From: Minisyncoccota bacterium
Lineage (GTDB): Bacteria > Patescibacteriota > Minisyncoccia > Phycocordibacterales > UBA9973
NCBI GenBank assembly: GCA_041661005.1
Contig: JBAZVG010000001.1
Location: 114,116 to 178,115, forward strand
Direction of reading: 5' to 3'
DNA length: 64,000 nt
The notes under the pieces are model-generated. The model saw nothing but the letters and a program-made list of their open reading frames with translations. It did not search any database and was not told where the DNA came from. Both the position numbers and the translations under genes were made by a program. Below are positions 1,265 to 63,494 of the stretch, piece by piece (within the stretch, counting starts at the first letter, position 1; each line of letters begins with the position of its first letter).

Positions 1265-3502
1265 TTACACAGCAACTAAATCTTTCTCGACACGCTTAAG
1301 TAACACGGCATTCGTTGCAACAATTATTGAAGATATACTCATAAGAAGTGCTGCGAATTCTGGACGGAGCATAATCCCAAACCCCGGATACAAAATTCCA
1401 CCAGCAATAGGAATTGCAAGCACATTATAAATTGAAGCCCAAAAAAGATTTTGTTTCATCTTAAGTACTGTTGCTTTACTCAAAGTAATAGCCCGAAGTA
1501 TGTCTAATGGGTCCGACTTCATAAGAACCACTTTTGCTGTCTCAATAGCAACATCTGTACCCGCGCCTATGGCGATACCTACATCTGACTGAGCTAAAGC
1601 AGGCGCATCATTAACCCCGTCTCCAACCATTGCTGTAAATTTACCCTCATCTTGAAGCTTCTTTACATATTTCTCCTTGTCTTCAGGCAACACCTCAGCA
1701 AAAACTCTGTCTATACCAAGTTCACGACCGACAGCTTCAGCTACCTTTTTATGATCACCCGTAATCATAGCAACTTCGATCCCAAGTTGTTTCAACTTTT
1801 CTACTGCTTTTTTAGCGTTGGGTTTAACAGTATCAGCCGCGGCAACAGCTCCAGCCAGTTTTCCATCTACAGCAATCAAGCTTAGAGTTTTTCCCTCACT
1901 TGCTAAGCGATCTAATGCTTCTCTGGCGTTACCAATTTCAACTTTATTATCGGTTAAAAGTTTTTCTTTCCCTGCCAGAATAATCTGGCCATTAATTATT
2001 GCTCTAAGTCCGTAACCCGCGATAGATTCAAATTTACTGATTGATATAAGCGGAGTAGCGCCTTGTCGTTCCGCCTCTTCCATTATCGCTTTAGCTAACG
2101 GATGGTTAGACCCAGCCTCTACGCTTGCTTCATAATTCAAAATATCTCTTTCAGTAAATCCATTGAAAGTAACCACATCCGTTACTTTCGGTTTCCCCTC
2201 TGTGAGTGTACCTGTTTTATCTAAAACTATTGCTTGAATTTTTGAAACTTGCTCAAGAGTTGGTGCATCTTTTATAAGAATATTATGTTTTGCCCCAAGC
2301 CCAGTGCCCACAGCCACAGCTGTCGGCGTAGCAAGTCCAAGTGCATCAGGGCAAGCGATCACAACCGTTGCTATTGCAAAAGAAAGTGCTAATAGAAATG
2401 TTGAGCCTGCTACAAAATACCAAATAATAAAAACTAGGAGTCCGGATCCTACGGCCGCAATAACTAAGTACTTCGCAAATCTATCAGCTAATCTTTGTCC
2501 TGGCGCTTTTGAGTTTTGTGCTTGTTCAACCATCGCTACAATTCGAGCAAGAGCAGTATCTTTGCCAATTTTTGTTGCTTTAAATTTTACTGAGCCAGTA
2601 ATATTGATAGATCCACCAATTACTTGATCTCCAATATTTTTAGAAGTAGGAATTGACTCTCCAGTAACTAATGATTCATCAATAGCAGTTTCGCCCTCTA
2701 TAATTTCCCCATCAACAGGAACTTTATCTCCTGGCTTAAGAATAATAATATCCCCCAATTGTATGTCTGATGTAGAAACAAGTATTTCTTTGCCATCTTT
2801 AAAAACTCTAGCTTGAGGTGGAACAAGATTAAAAAGTGCCTGTAGAGCATCTGTCGTCCCACGACGAGATTTCATTTCCATCCAATGACCAAAGAGGACG
2901 AAAGTAATGAGCATAGCAGCTGCTTCATAGTATGAATCTCTGCTACCGATTAAAGTTAATAAAATACTGAAGCCATAAGCTGCACTAATACCAACGGCGA
3001 TAAGCACCGCCATGTTGAGCAGTTTATTTTTTAAAGCATAGTATGTTGAGTAAAGAAAAATCCACCCAGAGTAAAAGAATACTGGTGTTGTTAAAATAAA
3101 AAGAAGCCACGGAATAGGTAGCGGTGACGGAAGATTAAGTTTTAAATATTCAGTTCCTAGTGGAGAATATAAAATTATTGGAATCGTAAGTAAAAGCGAA
3201 AAAAAGAATTTGTTACGAATATCTATTTCCATGAGACGAGCCATTTCTCGTCCTGCTAAACCTGTGTGGTCCATGCCCATAGTCATAGACATACTCATTT
3301 TAAATTTCTGCCAAAATCCCATTTTAGACTGATTCTCCATTGAATGTCCCGCGTGAGTATCATGATTAGTTTTAACTTCTTCTTTTTTAACAAGTACCAT
3401 TCCACACTTAGGACAAACACCTGGCTTATCAGAAAGAACTTCTGGATGCATTACGCAGGTATATATTGTTTTCTCTTTTTCTGTTATGTGATTGTGTTCC
3501 AT
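1265..3502 (-). CDS. heavy-metal (Cu+/Ag+-type) translocating P1B-type ATPase
   Basis: N-terminal CPKCGM metal-binding ribbon. TM helix with a CPD (CPx) motif, DKTGTLT phosphorylation site, GDGVNDAP hinge motif, 745 aa. Confidence 0.9.
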   Translation of the reverse strand: MEHNHITEKEKTIYTCVMHPEVLSDKPGVCPKCGMVLVKKEEVKTNHDTHAGHSMENQSKMGFWQKFKMSMSMTMGMDHTGLAGREMARLMEIDIRNKFFFSLLLTIPIILYSPLGTEYLKLNLPSPLPIPWLLFILTTPVFFYSGWIFLYSTYYALKNKLLNMAVLIAVGISAAYGFSILLTLIGSRDSYYEAAAMLITFVLFGHWMEMKSRRGTTDALQALFNLVPPQARVFKDGKEILVSTSDIQLGDIIILKPGDKVPVDGEIIEGETAIDESLVTGESIPTSKNIGDQVIGGSINITGSVKFKATKIGKDTALARIVAMVEQAQNSKAPGQRLADRFAKYLVIAAVGSGLLVFIIWYFVAGSTFLLALSFAIATVVIACPDALGLATPTAVAVGTGLGAKHNILIKDAPTLEQVSKIQAIVLDKTGTLTEGKPKVTDVVTFNGFTERDILNYEASVEAGSNHPLAKAIMEEAERQGATPLISISKFESIAGYGLRAIINGQIILAGKEKLLTDNKVEIGNAREALDRLASEGKTLSLIAVDGKLAGAVAAADTVKPNAKKAVEKLKQLGIEVAMITGDHKKVAEAVGRELGIDRVFAEVLPEDKEKYVKKLQDEGKFTAMVGDGVNDAPALAQSDVGIAIGAGTDVAIETAKVVLMKSDPLDILRAITLSKATVLKMKQNLFWASIYNVLAIPIAGGILYPGFGIMLRPEFAALLMSISSIIVATNAVLLKRVEKDLVAV

Positions 3503-3515
3503 AATTTTTATTTAA

Positions 3516-3692
3516 TTAGTTCTCTTTATTACTTTCGACAGCATATTTTATAATATCTAAATTGCAACTTTGATGTTCTTTGCACCACGCTTCACATTTT
3601 TCCGCCCATTCCCTTTCTTTATAGTATAAACCGCACTCAGGACATTGAAAGAGTTCCCCGTTGATTTTATTATTATCATTTTTAGAATTCAT
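3516..3692 (-). CDS. small zinc-ribbon protein (58 aa), not in the ORF track
   Basis: Hand-translated: MNSKNDNNKINGELFQCPECGLYYKEREWAEKCEAWCKEHQSCNLDIIKYAVESNKEN. CPxC...CxxxC pattern. Sits tightly between the ATPase and the next gene. Confidence 0.4.
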   Translation of the reverse strand: MNSKNDNNKINGELFQCPECGLYYKEREWAEKCEAWCKEHQSCNLDIIKYAVESNKEN

Positions 3693-17894: not shown

Positions 17895-19976
17895 ATGCAA
17901 ACAATAAATAAAAACTTAATAACACAGGAAGAATTCATAATGCTCTTCCCCAACACTCGATTCCGCTATATACACGACGTGAATGGATCAACCATACAAG
18001 GCAACAACATTCTTGATATGTCTTGGAATGAAAAAGGATATGGCATCTTTTTTACAGTCAATGGATTTCCATCTACCGGCAAAGCAGATCAGTCACAATT
18101 ATTATCTTTGAATGGTAATTACGTTGATTTCGACGTTGATGCCAAATTTCCACAGGAAGAAAAAGAAAAGCTTATAAAGGAAGCAATTATGTCTGGCATA
18201 GAAGCAGGGATACCAACTCCAACAATTATAAACCGCACTCAAAAAGGAGCTCACCTAATTTGGCTTTATACTGAAATACTTAAACCCACACTTGAGAATA
18301 TTGCAAAATGGAAGGATGTGCAGAAACGATTAGTCCATTGTTTTAATGGCGATACAGCGGCTACAGACCCCTCTAGGGTGCTTCGTATGCCTTATAGCCT
18401 ACACTTAAAGGATCCTAATAACCCCTTTGAAATAAAAGTGATGTCGTATAAGCCAGAGGCAAGATGTACGCTTGAAGAATTAGAAATGACAGTACCTAGA
18501 TATTCTGAAAATGAAGTTGACAAGGATAAGATATCTGCAATTGAGTTATTGCTAAAAGGTGTACCCATAGGAAAAGGCTTACGACATGGTGCGTTAGCGC
18601 AGATAGCAGGGTTATTTCTTAAAGGAGCAGACACGCCAGAGAAGGTTGAAATTGCAAGAATGAATTATTACGACTGGGATAAAAAAGTTGTAGGTTCACC
18701 AGAGAGATTTGAAGAACGCAAGAAGGAATTAGATAATACCTTTAATGGAATACTTAAACGTGAGGTGTCAGGTGAAGATACGGAAATAAAAACTAAGTTC
18801 GATATTGCAAACAGACCGCGTCTTTGGACTATCGGAGAAATTCTAGAACACGATTTCGGTGAAGAAGAATGGCTTGTAGATTCGTTAATCTCTAAACAAG
18901 GAATGATGGCACTCTCCGGCAATCCAGGAGACTTTAAAACCTGGGTAACAATCCACATCGCACTTTGTGTATCACGCAATCTTCCAGTATTTGGCAAGTT
19001 CCAAGCGACACAAGGAAGTGTTTTGATTATAGACGAAGAAGACCATTTACGACTTCTAAAGAGACGTTTAGAGCTACTCGGAGCAAAAGAAGCGGATAAT
19101 ATTCATTATCTCTCACAGAGTGGTATTAAGATTGATATAGAGGTAGTCCGAGATATGATCTTAGATATCGTTAATGAGAAAAATATAAAACTTGTTATAT
19201 TCGATTCGCTTATTCGAGTCCACGGACAAGAAGAAAACGATGCAGGAGGTATGGCAAAAGTATTTAACAGCTTCCAGAAAATAATTACAGCAGGAGCATC
19301 CATTCTCTTTACTCATCACCACAGAAAACAACAACAAGGGCAAAAAGCAAACACCGGACAAAGTATGCGAGGTTCGTCTGATATTTTAGCGGCAGTAGAT
19401 TGTCATATCACTATCGAGAAAAAAAGTGAAGAAGAAGATCGTCTTATTCTTCGACAAACGAAATTACGTCAAGGTGAATTACTTCCGCCTTTTGAGATAT
19501 CTATTCTTAAAAGTGAATTAGGCCCATCGGGTTTTGAATTTGTTGGTGATTTTGATGAAAAGAAGAAAAAAGCTGAAGAAGCTTCTGATGCAGTAGTGAT
19601 ACTACTTGCGGAAGGGATGAAGAATCGTCCAGAAATTATCGAGCTCCTAAAGGATGATGATTATGGCAGAGATATAGCGGATCGAGGGATAAAAATTGCA
19701 GAAGAAGCAGGTAAAATTGAGAAAGTTCCAAAAGATGAGGTGCCAAAAGGAGACAGAAAAGCATATTACAGACTTCCTTGGTTGTTCTCTATTAGAGATG
19801 TTCCAAACGAGCTTCCTGCTTCCTTACCCCCTATAGAGGGAGAAAAACAGGAAGATGTCCAAAATGAGCCATTCGAAGAGGTCGAGAGGGACAAGGATGG
19901 CATTGAGATTCCCCAAAAATTACCCGGACAACCGCCCGAAGCGCATGAAACCGACTCTGACCAAAGAAGCTTCTAA
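17895..19976 (+). CDS. replicative primase-polymerase (PrimPol-like N-terminus) fused to a RepA/DnaB-like P-loop (AAA_25-type) domain
   Basis: N-terminal DFDVD and GAHLIW (PrimPol-like acidic and His motifs). C-terminal SGNPGDFKT P-loop, VIFDSLIRV Walker B, HHHRKQ. Confidence 0.6.
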   Translation: MQTINKNLITQEEFIMLFPNTRFRYIHDVNGSTIQGNNILDMSWNEKGYGIFFTVNGFPSTGKADQSQLLSLNGNYVDFDVDAKFPQEEKEKLIKEAIMSGIEAGIPTPTIINRTQKGAHLIWLYTEILKPTLENIAKWKDVQKRLVHCFNGDTAATDPSRVLRMPYSLHLKDPNNPFEIKVMSYKPEARCTLEELEMTVPRYSENEVDKDKISAIELLLKGVPIGKGLRHGALAQIAGLFLKGADTPEKVEIARMNYYDWDKKVVGSPERFEERKKELDNTFNGILKREVSGEDTEIKTKFDIANRPRLWTIGEILEHDFGEEEWLVDSLISKQGMMALSGNPGDFKTWVTIHIALCVSRNLPVFGKFQATQGSVLIIDEEDHLRLLKRRLELLGAKEADNIHYLSQSGIKIDIEVVRDMILDIVNEKNIKLVIFDSLIRVHGQEENDAGGMAKVFNSFQKIITAGASILFTHHHRKQQQGQKANTGQSMRGSSDILAAVDCHITIEKKSEEEDRLILRQTKLRQGELLPPFEISILKSELGPSGFEFVGDFDEKKKKAEEASDAVVILLAEGMKNRPEIIELLKDDDYGRDIADRGIKIAEEAGKIEKVPKDEVPKGDRKAYYRLPWLFSIRDVPNELPASLPPIEGEKQEDVQNEPFEEVERDKDGIEIPQKLPGQPPEAHETDSDQRSF

Positions 19977-20133
19977 GGAATTAACAGCAATTCTGCAAAA
20001 ACAGTTCAAAAACAGCTCTATGACCTTCCCAGACGAATTAATTGAAGATCTCGGTTTAACATTACTTAATTTAGCAGTTATATCGCTTAAAAGAAGACTT
20101 AAAATCAACAGGCAAAATGACATTGAAAAATAG
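19945..20133 (+). CDS. small hypothetical protein just upstream of the recombinase (possible regulatory/directionality factor)
   Basis: Overlapping ORF 19855..20133 trimmed to an internal Met. A 12-bp perfect inverted repeat hairpin (20195..20243) follows it. Confidence 0.25.
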   Translation: MKPTLTKEASKELTAILQKQFKNSSMTFPDELIEDLGLTLLNLAVISLKRRLKINRQNDIEK

Positions 20134-20247
20134 AAATAATGGTATAATAGGTATGCCAGATCGAAGTAATAATAAAATTATTATTTATAAAAGTGGGGTA
20201 ACAACTACTTCGGTCTGGCGATTGAGGTTAAAGTTGTTACCCCGCTT

Positions 20248-21978
20248 TTGTTAAAAACTATGAAAAAACAAGATGAAAAAATTAAATATGGTGAATACCT
20301 CAGAAAATCTTCCGAAGACGAAGATAGGCAGATTAATTCTATTGAAGATCAGCAACGCGAACTTGATGCAATAGCGTTAAAAGAAAAACTTAATATTGTA
20401 ATTAAATATCCTGGAGAATCTCAAAGTGCCCATCATCCTGGTAGGTCTATTTTTGCAGATGCAATTAAAGATATTGAACTGGGGAAAATAAATGCTCTTT
20501 TTGTCTGGCACGCTAATAGGCTTTCTAGAAATCCAATTGATACGGGAATGATTATTTATCTTATGGACATAGGAAAACTTAAGGAAGTTAAAACAACAAC
20601 TAGAACTTATTACAATACTTCCAGTGATAAACATTATTTAAGCCAGGAACTTAGTAACTCTAAGAAAGATAGCGATGATAAGAGTGAAGTGGTTAAAAGA
20701 GCATTGGAAGGACGCGCTATTCGTGGCCTTCCAAGTGGAGTCTCGAAAGTTGGTTTTCTAAATGACATGACAGAAGAAAAAGGCAATAGAAAATGGATTG
20801 TGGACAAAATTCGTTTTCCTCTCGTTAAACAACTCCTTGAAAGAATGCTAACTGGAAGATATTCTCCGGCACAAATATATAGATATGCAAAAGATGACTT
20901 AAAACTTACAACCACACCGAGAAAAAGAGAAGGTGGCAAACCTGTAGCTTTTTCATATGTTTATACATTATTGAGAGACCCCATTTTTGCAGGTTTCTTC
21001 TCCCATAATGGTAAAAGATACGAATTAGACAAAAGACTCCCTCGCGCTATAACTGAAGAAGAATATTGGAAAATACAGGCAATGCTTGGATCAAAAGGCA
21101 GACCACAACCCTCAAAACATGAAGGCCTGTATAACCATTTTCTATCTTGTGGAGAATGCAAGGGTCGCATGTCTCCCGATTTTAAATTTCAGTTAATATG
21201 TCCTGTCTGTAAATTGAAATTTTCCTGCATAAATATGGATAAATGCCCAAAATGTAAGACCAAAACGAATACAATGACCGATCCAACCTATTGTTCTTAT
21301 GTGTATTATTACTGCATCAATAATAAAAAACATAGATCAGTATGTCCATCTAGTACAATTGAACAAAAGAGAATTGAAACAGCTGTTTATGACAAATTTA
21401 CTAATGAAATCTGCATCAGTAAGGAACTTTCAGATTGGTGTTTGAAGAATCTTTCTATCATCAAAGACACGGAAATTCAAGATGAGTCAGCTATAAAAAC
21501 ATCACTAGATGAACAAGAAATTCAAGTGAAGAAAAAATTAAATAATCTACTTAGTTACAGAATTAAAAAGCAGGATATTACGTCAGAACAAGAAGAAATT
21601 TTCGAGGCTCAAGAGAAAGAATTACAGCAAGAATGGTCCGATATTAAGCAAAGAAAAAATGTCAAAATTGACTGGTATAGTGAAGCTGCCAAAGAATTTA
21701 ATTTAATGACTGAAATAGAAGATACCCTCAAAAATGGCACTCCTGCAGAGAAAAAAGAACTCTTTTATGAATTGCGTTCGAACCTAACTGTTAGCGAGAA
21801 AAACCTTATTGTTATCAACAGAAAATCAATAAATGCCTTCGCAGAATGTATCCTACGTGCTAAATCTGAAAACAGAGCGTTCGAACCTAGAAATAATTTT
21901 CCTAGCTTTACAAACAAAAGCTCAAAAGAAAAAACAGAGGTTTTCGCCTCTGTAATTCCTACTCTGCTCCGGGGGTAG
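20248..21978 (+). CDS. large serine recombinase (resolvase/invertase catalytic domain plus recombinase and zinc-ribbon domains)
   Basis: N-terminal YLRKSSEDEDRQINSIEDQQRE (catalytic Ser/Arg motif). CGECKGRM...CPVCK...CPKCKTK zinc ribbons. Coiled-coil C-terminus. The stop lies inside the tRNA-Asn 3' end. Confidence 0.85.
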   Translation: MLKTMKKQDEKIKYGEYLRKSSEDEDRQINSIEDQQRELDAIALKEKLNIVIKYPGESQSAHHPGRSIFADAIKDIELGKINALFVWHANRLSRNPIDTGMIIYLMDIGKLKEVKTTTRTYYNTSSDKHYLSQELSNSKKDSDDKSEVVKRALEGRAIRGLPSGVSKVGFLNDMTEEKGNRKWIVDKIRFPLVKQLLERMLTGRYSPAQIYRYAKDDLKLTTTPRKREGGKPVAFSYVYTLLRDPIFAGFFSHNGKRYELDKRLPRAITEEEYWKIQAMLGSKGRPQPSKHEGLYNHFLSCGECKGRMSPDFKFQLICPVCKLKFSCINMDKCPKCKTKTNTMTDPTYCSYVYYYCINNKKHRSVCPSSTIEQKRIETAVYDKFTNEICISKELSDWCLKNLSIIKDTEIQDESAIKTSLDEQEIQVKKKLNNLLSYRIKKQDITSEQEEIFEAQEKELQQEWSDIKQRKNVKIDWYSEAAKEFNLMTEIEDTLKNGTPAEKKELFYELRSNLTVSEKNLIVINRKSINAFAECILRAKSENRAFEPRNNFPSFTNKSSKEKTEVFASVIPTLLRG

Positions 21979-22038
21979 GGATCGAACCTACGACCAATCG
22001 CTTAACAGGCGACCGCTCTACCGCTGAGCTACCCCGGA
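21967..22038 (-). tRNA. tRNA-Asn (anticodon GTT)
   Basis: Hand-folded on the minus strand: TCCGGGG-TA-GCTC-AGCGGTA-GAGC-G-GTCGC-CTGTTAA-GCGAT-TGGTC-GTAGG-TTCGATC-CCTAC-CCCCGGA-G. 7/4/5/5-bp stems. No CCA encoded. Confidence 0.85.
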
Positions 22039-22042
22039 ATGT

Positions 22043-22282
22043 TTATAATGTTTTCAAAAATTCTTTACCCGAACCCGATTTAAGCTTTTTCTCTAACACT
22101 CGGGCATCTTGTCTTGTTCCGGTGGATTGTTTATAAATCAAGCGCCAAGGCTTGAATGCGCGAGTAGATTTCGTATCGCTTGAATTATGTTCCAGTAATC
22201 TTCTTTCTGGATTACTACTTAATCCTACATAAATTCGTCCATCTTTTTCGCTTTTTATTGCATACACAAAATAGATTGCCAT
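22043..22282 (-). CDS. GIY-YIG nuclease family protein (79 aa)
   Basis: MAIYFVYAIKSEKDGRIYVGLSSNPERRLLEHN is the GIY-YIG signature (YhbQ/Slx1-like). The gene ends 5 nt from the tRNA 5' end. Confidence 0.8.
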   Translation of the reverse strand: MAIYFVYAIKSEKDGRIYVGLSSNPERRLLEHNSSDTKSTRAFKPWRLIYKQSTGTRQDARVLEKKLKSGSGKEFLKTL

Positions 22283-22299
22283 GGAATTATTATACTATA

Positions 22300-22393
22300 G
22301 CGACCGCTCCCTGCCTGCCGGCAGGCAGGTACCGCTGAGCTACCCCCGCCTCGCGTCGGCGAGCCTTGCGAGTCGAGGCGGGCCGGAATGTTT
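22300..22393 (-). repeat. duplicated tRNA-Asn 5' half (positions 1 to about 31 plus 5' flank) interrupted by two GC-rich palindromes
   Basis: gcgaccgctc/taccgctgagctacccc/ggaatgttt matches 22009..22045. Inserts are CCTGCCTGCCGGCAGGCAGG (22310..22329) and CGCCTCG...CGAGGCG (22347..22383). Confidence 0.7.
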
Positions 22394-22501
22394 CGAATTT
22401 TTTAAAGAACTTTTATCATATTAACAGAATTCGGCTAAAAAACAATGTTTTCTAAATTATTTTTTGCTTTTATTGGCAATAAGGTTTAGAATATAAATTA
22501 T

Positions 22502-22705
22502 ATGGTCTTCAATATAGCCAAGCATTTATCTTCAAAACATTGTAGTACCTGTCATGGCGAGGGGGATGGGTTCAAATGTCCAAAGTGTGGATATGTGACA
22601 GCCCAACATGACCCTCTGCATTTCAATCAATGCCGAGAAAAATCAATGGTGCAAGTAAAATGCAAGAAATGCGAAGAAGCAGAGAGTAATTGCAAATGTA
22701 GCTAA
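22502..22705 (+). CDS. small Cys/His-rich protein (67 aa)
   Basis: CSTCHG...CPKCG...CKKCEEAESNCKC. Probably zinc-binding. No family assigned. Confidence 0.4.
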   Translation: MVFNIAKHLSSKHCSTCHGEGDGFKCPKCGYVTAQHDPLHFNQCREKSMVQVKCKKCEEAESNCKCS

Positions 22706-23300: not shown

Positions 23301-23672
23301 ATGCTCGTTCTCTCGCGTAAACTCAACCAAAGCATTGTCATCGATGGTCAGATCTTCGTGAAGATTCTCGATATCGATCGCTATGTCGTCAAACTAGGTA
23401 TCCATGCGCCCGCGCAAACATCGGCGCCCCGGGAGGAGTTTCTCGAACTCAACGAAAGCACCCTCATTGATGGTCAGATAGTGGTGAAGATTGTCTGCAT
23501 CGATCGCAGAACCGTCAAGCTGGGCGTCCAGGCGCCCGCGGAGGTCCCAGTTGATCGTGAGGAAGTTCATGAAAGGAAAATCAGGGAAAGGACGGGTCAA
23601 GAGGCAATCAACAGGAATAAGCCAGCAAGAGATGGGCTGGTTAAGTGTCCTTTTACAGGGGCACTGGGATGA
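23301..23672 (+). CDS. csrA: tandem-duplicated (single-chain) carbon storage regulator CsrA
   Basis: Repeat 1 MLVLSRKLNQSIVIDGQIFVKILDIDRYVVKLGIHAP...PREEF. Repeat 2 LNESTLIDGQIVVKIVCIDRRTVKLGVQAPAEVPVDREEV. Both match the CsrA consensus MLILTRR..E.I.IGD.I.V.VL...G..VRLGI.AP.EV.V.REE. Local GC is far above surrounding DNA. Confidence 0.75.
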   Translation: MLVLSRKLNQSIVIDGQIFVKILDIDRYVVKLGIHAPAQTSAPREEFLELNESTLIDGQIVVKIVCIDRRTVKLGVQAPAEVPVDREEVHERKIRERTGQEAINRNKPARDGLVKCPFTGALG

Positions 23673-55158: not shown

Positions 55159-55938
55159 TCATGATTTCCCTAAATAGTGTTTCAATGTATAAATCCAATC
55201 TTCGTCTATCTGATCGCTCTCGAGTTTTTGAGCGAGAAGCCATTCTAGATAACCCCTGTCTACTTTTGCTACGTCTTCTATTTTTTTGCTATTGTGTTTG
55301 CCGAAGCCAAAAGTTCGCAAGAGAGAAGGATGTGAGGAAATTTCCACCATTTTTTCTATTGCTTCGTCTTCCCTAAACGCCTCACTAGAGGCGTCGGGCG
55401 ATCCGACTTTGTCGGATTTAGCCTCTTCTATAATTTTTTTCTTTAGTCTTTCATATAGTTTTTCTAAAACTAAAACATCTCCCATGGCATCATGTGCCGT
55501 TGCGTCTATTTCTATTTCTAACAGATATCGTAAGTATTGCAGATTGTATTTTTCCATTTTTCCTTCTTTATCCAAATGTCTAGCGAGTCTGAGCGTGCAG
55601 ATAAATCTCTTCGGTTCGATACCTTCCTTTTTTATCATAATCAAATCAAAAGGCGCATTGTGAGCCACAACGATAGAGTTTTTATCTTCGAAAAGTTTCT
55701 TTATTTTTTCCAAATCGCCACTTTCATGAAAAGATGGTTTATCAACCACCATTTTGTTTGAAATATGATGCACGGCGGAAGCTTCTGGGGGTATTTTAAT
55801 CGGGGGCTTGTAAAGCCCGACAAAACTTTCATCCTCTGCCCCGCCTGTGGCGGGGTAAATCTTATAAGCAATCTGGCAAAGAAAATCTTTTTCCGTATTG
55901 CCTGTGGTTTCCGTATCAAAAAATATTATCTTTGTCAT
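55159..55938 (-). CDS. DEDD-family 3'-5' exonuclease (DnaQ/epsilon-like) with a C-terminal extension
   Basis: IIFFDTETTG (Exo I), VVAHNAPFD (Exo II), ATAHDAMGD (Exo III-like). Confidence 0.75.
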   Translation of the reverse strand: MTKIIFFDTETTGNTEKDFLCQIAYKIYPATGGAEDESFVGLYKPPIKIPPEASAVHHISNKMVVDKPSFHESGDLEKIKKLFEDKNSIVVAHNAPFDLIMIKKEGIEPKRFICTLRLARHLDKEGKMEKYNLQYLRYLLEIEIDATAHDAMGDVLVLEKLYERLKKKIIEEAKSDKVGSPDASSEAFREDEAIEKMVEISSHPSLLRTFGFGKHNSKKIEDVAKVDRGYLEWLLAQKLESDQIDEDWIYTLKHYLGKS

Positions 55939-58176: not shown

Positions 58177-59220
58177 ATGGCATTCATCGATGAAATAAAA
58201 ATATATGCAGAGGCGGGGCAGGGAGGAAGCGGTGTTGTACGTTGGCATCGGCAGAAATTTGAACCGAAAGGTGGACCTGCGGGGGGAGATGCCGGACGGG
58301 GCGGAGATTTTTATGTGCGAGCTGTTCGTGATGTGCATATACTTTTAAAATACAAAGCAAAAAAAAGTTTTATTGCCGGCAGAGGAGAAGACGGGGGAAG
58401 TAAAAGTTTACATGGGAAAAATGGAGAAGATTTTATTTTGGAATTGCCAATTGGTTCAAAAATTACAAATTTGGATACAGACGAGCAGTGGCAATTAATA
58501 AATGAAGGCGAAACGATTTTGCTTTTAAAAGGCGGATATGGAGGTTTTGGTAATGAACATTTTAAAAGTTCGGTGAATACAACTCCGCACGAATCAAATG
58601 TCGGAGGAGCTGGCGAGAAGGGAAATTTTAAAATAGAATTAGAGCTTTTTGCCGATATTGGATTTGTTGGGCTCCCCAATGCGGGCAAGTCTTCTCTTTT
58701 AAACGCGCTGACGAATGCTGATGCAAAAGTGGGGGACTATCCTTTTACAACACTTGACCCGAATCTGGGGGATCTTCATGGTTATATCATTGCCGACATC
58801 CCTGGAATCATCGAAGGGGCATCAGAAGGCAAAGGTCTTGGAGTTAAATTCTTACGTCACATCAAGCGCACCAAAATGATCGCGCATTTAGTGTCTTTCG
58901 AAAATCCGAACATGATGAAAAGCTACAAGGAGATTCGTAAAGAATTAAAAAAATACGACGAAAATTTAAATCTGGGCGAGGAAGGTCTGTCGGCAAAAGA
59001 AGAAATAATCATTTTAACAAAGTCTGATGTTGTAGATGACCCCAAAATCGTTGCTAAAAAAGTTGTAGAATTTAAGAAATTAAAAATGCTTGCCCCGGCC
59101 AGCAAAGGCGGGGTTTTTACGTTGTCTTTATTTGATGATAAAATGGTAAAAAAGTTCAGCGATGCACTAGTGAAGATTTTGAAGCCTCGCCCGTCAGGCT
59201 ATGGCCGAGGGAAAAAATAA
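58177..59220 (+). CDS. obg: GTPase Obg
   Basis: Gly-rich Obg fold (AEAGQGGSGVVRWHRQKF...GGPAGGDAGRGGD) and G1 motif GLPNAGKSSL. Confidence 0.9.
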   Translation: MAFIDEIKIYAEAGQGGSGVVRWHRQKFEPKGGPAGGDAGRGGDFYVRAVRDVHILLKYKAKKSFIAGRGEDGGSKSLHGKNGEDFILELPIGSKITNLDTDEQWQLINEGETILLLKGGYGGFGNEHFKSSVNTTPHESNVGGAGEKGNFKIELELFADIGFVGLPNAGKSSLLNALTNADAKVGDYPFTTLDPNLGDLHGYIIADIPGIIEGASEGKGLGVKFLRHIKRTKMIAHLVSFENPNMMKSYKEIRKELKKYDENLNLGEEGLSAKEEIIILTKSDVVDDPKIVAKKVVEFKKLKMLAPASKGGVFTLSLFDDKMVKKFSDALVKILKPRPSGYGRGKK

Positions 59221-61694: not shown

Positions 61695-63494
61695 GTGAAA
61701 GAAGAAATTAAAAAATTTTTCAAAGGAGAAGTGGAGGATGATGAAGAAACATTGATAAAATATTCGCATGATGCGAGTCTTTTAGAGGTGCGACCGCAGA
61801 TGGTTGTTTTCCCGAAAGATTCGGAAGATGTGAAGAATTTAGTGAAATGGGTCAATGAAAATAAAAATAAATATGACGGGCTTTCTATTACGGCGAGATG
61901 CGCGGGGACGGATATGTCTGGCGGGGCGATCGGCGAATCTATAATCTTGGATTTTACTCGGCATATGAATAAATTGATTGGCGGACCATTGCCGATAGAT
62001 GATTCATACACAAAAAAACGCAACAGAAAAAACAACAAAATTGGAAATTATCCCTTAGTGCCTTCATACATTACTGTCCAGCCTGGTATGTTTTACAGGG
62101 ATTTTGAAAAAATAACTTTAGAGAAAGGATTGATTTTGCCGTGTTATACAGCTTCAAAGAGTTTGAACGCCATGGGCGGAATGTATGGCAATAATTCTGC
62201 CGGAGAAAGAACTCTAAAATATGGCAAGATGGAGGACTATATTTTAGAAGCGAAAGTTGTTTTTACAGATGGCAATGAATACGTAGTTAATCTTCTTAAT
62301 AAAATCGAATTGAGTAAAAAGATTACCCAGAATGATTTTGAAGGAAATGTCTATAAAAATATTTTTAATTTAATAAATGGAAATCAATCAGAAATAAAAC
62401 TTGCAAAACCAAATGTGCACAAAAACTCGGCTGGTTACTACATATGGAATGTAATACAAAATAATGTTTTTGATTTAAATAAACTTCTTGTTGGTTCACA
62501 GGGGACTTTGGGCATCGCTACGGAAATTACTTTTAAATTAATACCCGAAAATAAACATTCAAAGCTTGTGGTTATTTTTATGAATGATTTAGCGCCTCTT
62601 GGTCGTCTTGTAGACGAGATTTTAATGCTCAATCCAGAAACGCTCGAGACATATGACGACAAGACAATGAAATTGGCGGTCAAATTTTTCCCGAATTTTT
62701 TGAAGAATAAAGGTTTTTTTAGAATGGTTAAATTCATGTGGAGCTTTTTGCCAGAAGCTTTTATGATGATCACTGGCGGTTTCCCTAAATTAATTCTTTT
62801 GGCTGAATTTGCTGGAGAGAACGAAGAAGATGTAAATAAAAAATGCGAAGTCTTAAAATCAAGATTGAAAATTTTTAATCCCGACGTAAAGTCGGGACCC
62901 CGACCTAATGCGTCGGGGTTAAAAGTTTATATTACAAAAAATCAAACGGAAGCAGGCAAGTATTGGGACATCCGAAGAGAGAGTTTTGCACTACTGCGAA
63001 AACATGTGAAAGGCAAGCGCACTGCGCCGTTTATCGATGATATCATCGTCCGTCCTGAATTCTTGCCGAAGTTTCTGCCGGAATTGAATGGTATATTAGA
63101 CAAATACAATTTGATTTTCACATTGGCAGGGCATGCCGGAGACGGAAATTTTCATATTATTCCATTGATGGATTTCAAACGTCCGGATACCGCAAAAATC
63201 ATAATGGAACTTTCTGAAAAAGTATACGATCTGGTAGCTAAATATCACGGATCGATTACAGCTGAGCACAATGACGGCATCATTCGCACCCCATATCTCG
63301 GGAAGATGTATGACAGAGAAATAATCAAAATTTTTGCAAAAATTAAAGAAGTTTTCGATCCAAAAAATATTTTTAATCCTGGTAAAAAAGTTCCCACTGC
63401 TTCTATGGGTGGCCCCGCCGTTGGCGGGGCAGGCACAAAAGAATATATAGTCTCGCATATTGCGGTGGAACACAAAACCTTACATAAGGTTTAG
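61695..63494 (+). CDS. FAD-linked oxidase (GlcD / D-lactate dehydrogenase-like FAD-binding oxidoreductase)
   Basis: PCMH-type FAD-binding segment (VVFPKDSEDVKNLVKW...ITARCAGTDMSGGAIGESIILDF), 599 aa. Confidence 0.7.
   Translation: MKEEIKKFFKGEVEDDEETLIKYSHDASLLEVRPQMVVFPKDSEDVKNLVKWVNENKNKYDGLSITARCAGTDMSGGAIGESIILDFTRHMNKLIGGPLPIDDSYTKKRNRKNNKIGNYPLVPSYITVQPGMFYRDFEKITLEKGLILPCYTASKSLNAMGGMYGNNSAGERTLKYGKMEDYILEAKVVFTDGNEYVVNLLNKIELSKKITQNDFEGNVYKNIFNLINGNQSEIKLAKPNVHKNSAGYYIWNVIQNNVFDLNKLLVGSQGTLGIATEITFKLIPENKHSKLVVIFMNDLAPLGRLVDEILMLNPETLETYDDKTMKLAVKFFPNFLKNKGFFRMVKFMWSFLPEAFMMITGGFPKLILLAEFAGENEEDVNKKCEVLKSRLKIFNPDVKSGPRPNASGLKVYITKNQTEAGKYWDIRRESFALLRKHVKGKRTAPFIDDIIVRPEFLPKFLPELNGILDKYNLIFTLAGHAGDGNFHIIPLMDFKRPDTAKIIMELSEKVYDLVAKYHGSITAEHNDGIIRTPYLGKMYDREIIKIFAKIKEVFDPKNIFNPGKKVPTASMGGPAVGGAGTKEYIVSHIAVEHKTLHKV

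Follow-up and report, generated by a model that had tools for sequence, protein, structure and literature searches.

Here we describe a small cassette that lies against a tRNA gene in a 64,000-nucleotide stretch of DNA from a Minisyncoccota bacterium (contig JBAZVG010000001.1, positions 114,116 to 178,115), which we call the window and in whose coordinates all positions are given. The window is AT-rich (36% GC), and its single tRNA gene is a tRNA-Asn(GTT) at 21966–22038 on the minus strand, identified with ARAGORN and Rfam (RF00005, 70.2 bits). Just past the tRNA 3′ end is a terminator-like hairpin with a T-run (21934–21953, minus strand). On the 5′ side, a 4-nt spacer, ACAT (22039–22042), which is part of a duplicated leader AAACAT, separates tRNA position 1 from the stop codon of a 79-residue open reading frame (ORF). 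The ORF (22043–22282, Pfam PF01541) encodes a minimal GIY-YIG nuclease of the Slx1/UPF0213 type and has the orientation of the tRNA. Its 5′ untranslated region (UTR; 22283–22299, minus strand) contains a −10-like box, TAGTATAAT, which is kept in three related loci (L082, L084, and L085); a sigma-70 consensus scan made no call on this box. Upstream of the UTR is a second, partial copy of the tRNA, here called the stub, which is split by two GC-rich hairpins.

Read in the direction of the tRNA (minus strand throughout), the locus begins with the native tRNA-Asn promoter and leader region (TTGTTTTTT..TTCTGTTAATATGATAAAAGTTCTTT.., 22450–22394), which now drives the stub. The stub itself opens with the native leader AAACAT and tRNA positions 1–3 (TCC; 22385–22393). 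It is then interrupted in the acceptor 5′ strand, between TCC and GGGG, by a 38-nt GC-rich imperfect hairpin (hp2; 22347–22384), and resumes with a copy of tRNA positions 4–21, GGGGTAGCTCAGCGGTA (22330–22346). Next comes a perfect 20-nt palindrome, CCTGCCTGCCGGCAGGCAGG (PAL; 22310–22329), which is a clean insert between tRNA positions 21 and 22 (GGTA and GAGC), canonically the end of the D-loop. Beyond PAL is a copy of tRNA positions 22–31, GAGCGGTCGC (termed B′; 22300–22309), and TATAGTATAATAATTCC leads from there to the ATG of the 79-residue ORF, its TAA stop, the ACAT spacer, and the intact tRNA. The proximal segment, 22009–22045, therefore reappears at 22300–22393 as three exact blocks of 10 nt (22300–22309), 17 nt (22330–22346), and 9–11 nt (22383/22385–22393). 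A repeat search returned the 10-nt, 17-nt, and CCGGAATGTTT blocks along with both inverted repeats.

An earlier note on this DNA, made from its letters only, had described a tRNA 5′ segment repeated and split by two GC-rich palindromes, and the sequence bears this out with small changes in dimensions. The repeat does reach tRNA positions 1–31, with a leader of 6 nt instead of 6–7, since the tRNA starts with TCC at 22038. The exact identity is 36–38 nt depending on where the junctions are placed, compared to the 37 bp given in the note. The CGCCTCG...CGAGGCG hairpin is present but measures 38 nt as an insert rather than 37, with an imperfect 34-nt core (22347–22380), and its edges are uncertain by 2–4 nt because of flanking C/G runs. 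As the note had also reported, the 257 nt between the repeat copies (22043–22299) hold just the 79-residue ORF and its 5′ UTR. An independent assembly (Logan SRR18595301, L001) has the identical locus with both hairpins on a contig that terminates within the repeat; thus, the locus is not an assembly artefact. PAL folds as a DNA hairpin at −8 kcal/mol. It occurs once in the window, where chance would predict no copy even at three mismatches. An Rfam E-value scan of 21700–22700 recovered the tRNA only, with no ribozyme or motif over the stub or hairpins, and the RNA fold of the stub is no more stable than that of shuffled sequences (z = −1.0).

The 79-residue protein matches Pfam PF01541 over residues 4–72 (E = 1.7e-15, 57.5 bits, cut-off 22.6), and the catalytic residues Y7, Y18, R28, H32, and E64 are invariant among 40 sequences. 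The catalytic domain makes up the entire protein; a separate DNA-binding domain (NUMOD, helix-turn-helix, or zinc finger) was not found. Searched against the PDB, a profile of 40 homologues gave two UPF0213 proteins, 1ywl (EF2693, 7e-9) and 1zg2 (7e-7), followed by SLX1 (4e-4) and I-TevI (1.6e-3). An AlphaFold2 model (pLDDT 94.4) was most similar in Foldseek to Slx1 (6seh; TM-score 0.72, E = 7e-4, 27% identity), and UvrC reached just E = 0.6. The model for group I intron endonucleases, TIGR01453, scored 19.6 bits against a cut-off of 56. The protein belongs to the Slx1/UPF0213 (YhbQ-type) branch of the GIY-YIG superfamily and lacks the C-terminal Asn motif. It is 100% identical to a protein from Candidatus Paceibacterota, a member of the candidate phyla radiation (CPR). 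Among 1.8 billion representative proteins, a profile search recovered 4,175 clusters of its family (50% identity, E ≤ 1e-10).

PADLOC returned sub-threshold noise only as a defence match, the PHROGs match is to a generic “homing endonuclease” (5e-5), and tblastn found no family member on sequenced plasmids or in cultured phages. In the open-access papers and preprints that we searched, no link of this nuclease family to tRNA genes or palindromes was found, and queries for UPF0213/YhbQ/COG2827 and for the PAL sequence itself gave no description of the arrangement. The palindrome-nuclease family therefore appears to be undescribed in that literature. Both the protein and PAL are under clear constraint. 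Compared to the three closest relatives (82–85% amino acid identity), the ratio of nonsynonymous to synonymous substitutions (dN/dS) is 0.07–0.11 and the proportion of differing synonymous sites (pS) is 0.61–0.77, which is near saturation. The dN/dS values indicate that the protein is kept by selection, and PAL is identical at 20 of 20 positions in all four relatives while synonymous sites are saturated.

We then looked at relatives of the locus. A scan of one genome per species yielded 531 relatives, and the counts given here use the best 80 loci among these. Their hosts are CPR groups, many Bacteroidota, Ignavibacteriales, Omnitrophota, and a Brevinematales bin, and the Bacteroidota include isolates of Cyclobacterium, Pedobacter, Algoriphagus, Litoribacter, and Cognataquiflexum. 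A same-strand tRNA sits beside the GIY-YIG gene in 71 of the 80 loci, 0–140 nt downstream in 60 and just upstream in 11. Partner tRNAs are Arg-CCT (30), Asn-GTT (20), Leu (9), Lys (4), Arg-ACG (4), Arg-TCG (2), Thr, and Pro. Across the ORF from the intact tRNA there is a partial copy of the same tRNA, as in the window. Among the nine loci without a tRNA call, four have, next to the GIY-YIG gene, a CPR tRNA-Asn broken in the anticodon loop (L068, L041, L071, and L005), which explains why ARAGORN missed them. In L068 the interruption was confirmed as a group I intron (3267–3550; RF00028, 83.9 bits), and no Rfam intron reached threshold in the other three. The tRNA of the window is free of such an intron in the Rfam scan described above.

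PAL lies inside the partial tRNA copy in 70 of the 80 loci, and five more loci have indel variants of it. The earlier note had considered that its palindromes might occur nowhere else and that the GIY-YIG gene might be conserved at one fixed locus, and neither is the case. Allowing up to three mismatches, we counted 95 copies of PAL in 432 kb of GIY-YIG loci. Exact copies number 61. No more than 150 nt separates 87 of the 95 from the ORF, and 62 have TA/G as their insertion site, where the slash marks the junction. Excising the 20 nt of PAL gives back the exact tRNA sequence, without a target duplication. The insertion positions correspond to loops and junctions of the cloverleaf, namely 9/10, 14/15, 21/22, 26/27, the variable loop, and the T-loop. 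PAL also shows up in protein databases, as peptides encoded in its three frames (LPAGRQ, PACRQA, and CLPAGR) are present in miscalled extensions of 31 of the 255 family proteins that we fetched, often adjoining translated tRNA sequence. With PAL in place, the longest exact repeat block between stub and tRNA has a median of 21 nt, versus 27 nt without it, and blocks of at least 30 nt are found in 4 of 52 loci with PAL versus 23 of 52 without. In the window, the corresponding values are 17 nt and 36–37 nt. Mismatches between stub and local tRNA number 73 on the left of PAL and 92 on the right over 81 copies, which are similar counts. Some stubs are more elaborate and contain three to five different or repeated GC-rich hairpins at successive junctions (L005, 2860–3000; L054, 3215–3340; L037, 2910–3000), which implies repeated insertions of hairpins only.

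Next, we examined alleles of the same tRNA gene. A metagenome scan for the exact 45-nt core of the tRNA-Asn gave 109 loci, 74 of them distinct and with at least 450 nt of upstream sequence. Forty-eight of these alleles are pristine, 14 are footprints with a duplicated 5′ stub but no GIY-YIG gene, 10 have the gene upstream of the tRNA, and 2 have it downstream. Pristine alleles have a conserved promoter/leader motif directly before the tRNA, nothing else, and no hairpins. One empty site (L153) is syntenic with the window, with PLD and peptidoglycan-binding genes upstream. This allele and another empty one (L167) align with the promoter region of the window (22394–22450) and run straight into their own intact tRNA. 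It follows that the window stub is the original 5′ end of the gene with its native promoter, and that the intact tRNA now lies ~350 nt further on. The displacement of the native tRNA promoter proposed in the earlier note is therefore confirmed. A candidate reading of the sequence upstream of the stub as a relic of the 3′ end of an older GIY-YIG ORF was rejected, because that sequence is the native promoter/leader shared with the empty alleles. Presence/absence polymorphism that includes empty close relatives is a hallmark of homing genes, and the cassette displays it.

A different insert fills the same niche in some tRNA-Asn alleles. A conserved module of ~125 nt without an ORF is found upstream of the tRNA in L129, L131, L135, L146, L150, L151, L178, and L200, between a duplicated TCCGGGGTAG stub, which sits behind the native promoter, and the intact tRNA. 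RNAalifold predicts a cloverleaf-like structure of 45 pairs, with compensatory changes in 7. The module has no match in Rfam, and at its 3′ end it repeats tRNA positions 4–17 in inverted orientation. We see three possible readings of this module: a non-autonomous derivative, a scar of fold-back repair, or a structured RNA.

Foreign DNA enclosed by direct repeats of a tRNA segment is classically the mark of an integrative element, and a large serine recombinase element adjoins this very tRNA. One could thus suppose a local accident, either a tandem partial duplication of the tRNA-Asn or a remnant attachment-site repeat, in which an unrelated GIY-YIG ORF became trapped. We consider this highly improbable. 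The 257 nt between the repeats encode one 79-residue ORF and no recombinase. The serine recombinase gene (20248–21978) lies across the tRNA, at its 3′ end, and comes and goes independently of the cassette: the recombinase flank is present in L122, which has no GIY-YIG gene, and in L183, and L082, L084, and L085 have the gene without the recombinase. The earlier note had placed the recombinase element on the other side of the tRNA, and this element is indeed separate. The note's suggestion of a decayed integrative element fails, as more than 70 unrelated loci share the 0.3-kb architecture and the palindrome. The differing tRNA identities exclude a single vertical duplication. The 64-kb window holds no further copy of the tRNA 3′ end, and the decayed tRNA paralog that the note had held out as an alternative fails as well. 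What stands is its other proposal, the footprint of a small GIY-YIG mobile cassette, which is here an intact copy; the polymorphism at an identical tRNA and the syntenic empty site support it. Recurrence at many tRNAs in several phyla gives further backing, as does amplification. Tandem arrays of two to four units exist, including one in the complete genome of Cyclobacterium xiamenense (L054) with a period of 337 nt, 3.9 copies, and 99% identity. One Sunxiuqinia genome has two copies at two tRNA-Arg-ACG genes (L021 and L022).

These data also bear on whether the GIY-YIG protein could instead be a host-useful factor in tRNA biology, such as the stability, processing, or quality control of tRNAs or their genes, that is co-transcribed with the tRNA, with the duplication and hairpins acting as expression or processing signals, for instance a 5′ stabilizer or an insulator. 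The strong purifying selection on the protein would suit such a role, as would the constant co-orientation with the tRNA, the tight spacing, and the position of the hairpins in what would be a 5′ UTR. Moreover, Slx1-like domains are found fused to a TrmH-like tRNA methyltransferase and to COG4123 methyltransferases (PMC1564403), and in other clades the ORF stops at U8-A9-G10 of the tRNA. However, the distribution is patchy. The gene is present in 12 of 74 alleles of an identical tRNA, next to 14 footprints and a syntenic empty site; it accompanies different tRNAs in different lineages, and its arrays hold up to four identical copies. A stabilizing hairpin would not need an invariant 20-nt sequence, and viral contigs lack an equally stable control palindrome (see below). 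There is also no PADLOC defence match. We therefore regard a host-useful factor as quite unlikely.

The arrangement in which the ORF stops inside the tRNA was seen in six loci (L123, L156, L179, L201, L210, and L218). There the GIY-YIG ORF ends in I-P-G-stop (ATT CCG GGG TAG) and overlaps the first 10 nt of the tRNA, such that its stop codon is the conserved U8-A9-G10. Given this position, processing by RNase P would strip the stop codon from the mRNA.

The hairpins differ among nuclease clades. At tRNA-Asn, clade A, to which the window belongs, has PAL at 21/22. Clade B has TCCGCCAGCTGGCGGA after position 9, following TCCGGGGTA, in five of five loci, and in clade C the acceptor strand contains hp2 or a degenerate version in three of three. 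After the hairpin, all three clades continue with a short piece of tRNA, then a TATAAT-like box and the ORF. Palindrome type thus co-varies with nuclease clade, as it does in systems that pair repetitive extragenic palindromes (REPs) with REP-associated tyrosine transposases (RAYTs), albeit in a small sample. Within the window clade (the window, L082/L228, L084, and L085), a block of GCGGTA, PAL, GAGCGGTCGC, two further nucleotides, TAGTATAAT, and the ATG is conserved, while the distal stub is decayed in L082 and L084. In L085, B′ follows the window-clade consensus and differs from the local tRNA at 5 of 10 positions. This one clear case suggests that PAL, B′, and the ORF moved jointly into a different tRNA-Asn allele.

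The window has both PAL and hp2. In L123 and L201, hp2 is present at the same site with its asymmetric interior inverted, and in L218 it is degenerate; all three are beside clade-C GIY-YIG genes. The only GIY-YIG gene in the 64-kb window is of clade A. Two origins of hp2 in the window are most likely: a clade-C element that once occupied the site left it behind, or the hairpin moved alone.

PAL is also found without the nuclease. The exact sequence is present in 35 IMG/VR contigs (L086–L120) as 42 copies, with up to 6 on one 29.5-kb contig. Two composition-matched control palindromes, one of them folding with a predicted stability equal to that of PAL, gave 0 and 0 matches. PAL is therefore specific in sequence, beyond being a stable hairpin. 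Only L117 among the 35 viral loci is a typical GIY-YIG/tRNA cassette. The others are mostly GC-rich, and in them PAL forms intergenic hairpins, often after structural (capsid- or tail-like) genes; twice it lies within a tRNA-Met-like sequence (L110 and L087). A hidden Markov model of the family matched no ORF of the 35 loci except in L117, and ORF clustering detected no recurrent nuclease within 600 nt of viral PAL, with structural proteins there instead. Direct repeats flanking viral PAL are inconsistent.

These viral copies are one argument for the view that the hairpins are independent palindromes, similar to REPs or miniature inverted-repeat transposable elements, that gather in dispensable DNA such as a tRNA stub and have no mutual role with the spread of the GIY-YIG gene. 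The earlier note had raised this possibility for its two hairpins. Part of it survives, in that the hairpins do behave as mobile palindromes: solo hairpins and multi-hairpin stubs are known, hp2 occurs in both orientations, no recurrent nuclease adjoins viral PAL, and the window stub carries hp2 with no clade-C gene in 64 kb. Independence in the stricter sense does not fit as well. Eighty-seven of the 95 PAL copies in GIY-YIG loci are within 150 nt of the ORF, the sole PAL of the window is at this cassette, and at one and the same tRNA the hairpin type follows the nuclease clade (five of five and three of three). In addition, PAL is invariant beside saturated synonymous sites, and pristine tRNA-Asn alleles have no hairpins. 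On balance, we regard the hairpins as companions of the cassette and think that independent hairpins are unlikely, although this is the alternative to which we give the most weight.

We propose that the locus is an intact, mobile, homing-like selfish cassette in a tRNA gene, which rebuilds the tRNA that it interrupts and uses the palindrome as a cis-acting partner. We consider this reading probable, with appreciable room for doubt. The sequences show the anatomy of the cassette, with a cognate palindrome where host stub and element meet and a regenerated tRNA; its recurrence and polymorphism, including gain, loss, and amplification; the selection on both protein and PAL; and the link between hairpin and clade. 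In the direction of the tRNA, the cassette would consist of PAL, B′, the −10-like box, the GIY-YIG gene, and a leader with a tRNA 5′ part (termed A). It would insert at the junction of D-loop and D-stem (21/22), such that A of the element joins the 3′ part of the host gene to make a working tRNA-Asn. Positions 1–21 of the intact tRNA would then have been brought by the cassette and the 3′ part would be host-derived, while the host promoter, leader, and 5′ part would stay behind on the upstream side, forming a dead stub with PAL as its cap.

How the cassette might move can be outlined from the same features. A nuclease dimer that reads DNA structure rather than a long sequence would nick or break an unoccupied tRNA gene, usually at TA/G. 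Such a structure-specific enzyme could read a cloverleaf-like fold of the non-template strand in a tRNA gene under heavy transcription. An occupied copy would then serve as the repair template, with homology in A on one side and in the tRNA body on the other, and the unit of PAL, B′, GIY-YIG gene, leader, and A would be copied in. Because B′ is short (10 nt here), the right end would have to pair with the intact tRNA, and the gene would thus be co-transferred. Repeat events at the rebuilt tRNA would produce tandem arrays, and recombination between the repeats would produce loss and footprints. PAL may be a handle or recognition site for the nuclease, a plug that spoils the stub as a target, or both. 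It also cuts the direct repeats into short blocks, which should slow recombinational deletion. Where the nuclease cuts, how the break is repaired, and what the palindrome does are inferred from static sequences, as is movement itself.

Several observations weigh against the proposed homing-like cassette. The rebuilt tRNA retains the presumed target and is thus exposed to self-attack; arrays fit with this, yet it is a cost. Since the stub site is broken by PAL but the rebuilt site is whole, immunity of an occupied allele would be partial at best. A bare 79-residue domain is unlikely to be a sequence-specific homing enzyme. An element-borne B′ is clear in one case (L085); at most loci both halves of the stub equal the local tRNA, which fits either recent insertion or ongoing gene conversion. 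The multi-hairpin stubs (L005, L054, and L037) and the solo hairpins need hairpin-only moves that are outside simple homing, and the viral copies limit the claim that PAL depends on a GIY-YIG gene in cis. Strong purifying selection and co-orientation with the tRNA also suit a host-useful gene. Finally, no family member was found on sequenced plasmids or in cultured phages that could act as a vehicle for horizontal spread.

A more speculative possibility, which we regard as decidedly unlikely, is that the stub is a guide module. Here the clade-specific hairpin would be the handle of a GIY-YIG dimer, and the A and B′ arms would pair with a target strand that is cut at TA/G, precisely at the meeting point of the arms. 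The stub would be available either as a transcript of the native tRNA promoter, which is strong, or as extruded single-stranded DNA. This idea would explain the constant placement of a hairpin between two adjoining halves of the target, the invariance of the hairpin beside arms that follow the local tRNA, the multi-hairpin stubs, and the target specificity of a bare 79-residue domain. If true, it would amount to a hairpin-guided, programmable minimal nuclease, with PAL-type hairpins as portable handles.

If instead the homing-like cassette is the correct reading, thousands of small genes annotated as “GIY-YIG family protein” are tRNA-gene parasites rather than orphan repair genes. They would make up a parasite class with a defined anatomy and a cis-acting palindrome, spread over CPR, Bacteroidota, and other bacteria. 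It would also show how a mobile element can sit inside an essential gene without destroying that gene, by supplying a replacement half-gene and taking over the promoter. The isolates that carry the cassette (Cyclobacterium, Pedobacter, and Algoriphagus) are a tractable system for studying how a bare Slx1-like domain finds its target, and the protein may offer a very small nuclease directed by structure or by a hairpin. There are practical effects on annotation and assembly as well, including pseudo-tRNA stubs, ORFs overextended through PAL (LPAGRQ and PACRQA), and contigs that break at the repeat. A 20-nt palindrome that is invariant across phyla and has a separate presence in GC-rich viral contigs is a puzzle in its own right.

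The surroundings of the cassette contain several other features. An apparent integrated element is present at the tRNA 3′ end (12658–21978, plus strand). It includes the large serine recombinase (20248–21978), which overlaps the tRNA by 13 nt, a 693-residue AAA_25 primase/helicase-like protein (17895–19976), a 1001-residue SMC/AAA_21 protein (12658–15663), and a small protein with a Pol-beta thumb domain. GC content falls to 0.30–0.32 at 12–17 kb of the window. The recombinase flank is common to L122 (91% identity) and L183 (82% over 1.4 kb) and is not in most tRNA-Asn alleles. On the other side, a 67-residue cysteine-rich, zinc-ribbon-like ORF (22502–22705, plus strand) has the tRNA promoter region to one side and the peptidoglycan-binding gene to the other; a family search gave a weak zinc-ribbon hit only. 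This ORF is present in a close relative without a GIY-YIG gene (L200) and is apparently absent from L153, where the aligned segment ends at the ORF 3′ end, ~136 nt from the tRNA. Further along is a 123-residue ORF with two tandem CsrA domains (23301–23672, plus strand; Pfam CsrA, E = 3e-28); this ORF has stretches that are unusually GC-rich for this genome (23419–23438 and 23518–23551). Other short GC-rich hairpin-like sequences, such as CCCCGCCTGTGGCGGGG and GCCCCGCCGTTGGCGGGGC, were seen at 55833–55857, 59092–59113, and 63406–63436, with no sequence kinship to PAL or hp2.

The cassette resembles several known systems in part. Like integrative islands that target tRNA genes, it brings a tRNA piece that keeps the gene intact and leaves a direct repeat. 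Those islands, however, use a tyrosine or serine recombinase, usually target the tRNA 3′ half, and are kilobases long, whereas the cassette has no recombinase inside its repeats, involves the 5′ part, measures ~0.3 kb, and leaves a displaced stub capped by PAL. In REP/RAYT systems, and those of the related REPINs, short GC-rich palindromes flank a single-copy nuclease gene and their type tracks the enzyme clade, and the cassette is similar in both respects. RAYTs are HUH/Y1 transposases, and REPINs are dispersed between genes in tens to hundreds of copies. In contrast, the enzyme here is a GIY-YIG nuclease and the hairpins are local to their own tRNA locus (one PAL in 64 kb), inside tRNA-derived sequence; in the GIY-YIG loci, 87 of 95 PAL copies are within 150 nt of the gene. 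The mobile GC clusters of yeast and other fungal mitochondria are a further parallel. These are GC-rich hairpins in AT-rich genomes with many GIY-YIG homing genes, and they insert cleanly at short preferred targets, as the hairpins of the cassette do. GC clusters are organellar, have other sequences, and are not confined to tRNA stubs, and we know of no demonstrated one-to-one link between them and nuclease clades.

In sequence and fold, the protein is nearest to Slx1 and UPF0213 proteins (1ywl, 1zg2, and 6seh). Slx1 cuts branched and stem-loop DNA, which by analogy would suit a putative hairpin- or cloverleaf-directed enzyme. Slx1 itself has a RING domain, needs Slx4, serves host genome maintenance, and has no link to tRNA genes or a cognate palindrome. 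A 2006 survey of the GIY-YIG superfamily reported prokaryotic Slx1-like proteins fused to TrmH-like and COG4123 methyltransferases and made no mention of tRNA genes or palindromes (PMC1564403). By function, the closest systems are free-standing GIY-YIG homing genes such as SegB, which is in the tRNA gene cluster of phage T4 (PMC2330249). Like the Seg genes and that of the intron-encoded I-TevI, the cassette is a seemingly selfish GIY-YIG gene among or near tRNA genes with presence/absence polymorphism, and its spread may likewise proceed as is thought for those genes, by break-induced copying from an occupied allele with co-conversion of the flanks. Seg and I-TevI proteins are phage-borne, unlike this family, which was not found in cultured phages, and they are 200–250 residues long with a separate sequence-reading domain, compared to a bare 79-residue catalytic domain of the Slx1/UPF0213 branch here. 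Their genes have neither a conserved palindrome nor a target duplication that rebuilds the interrupted gene, and the cassette has both.

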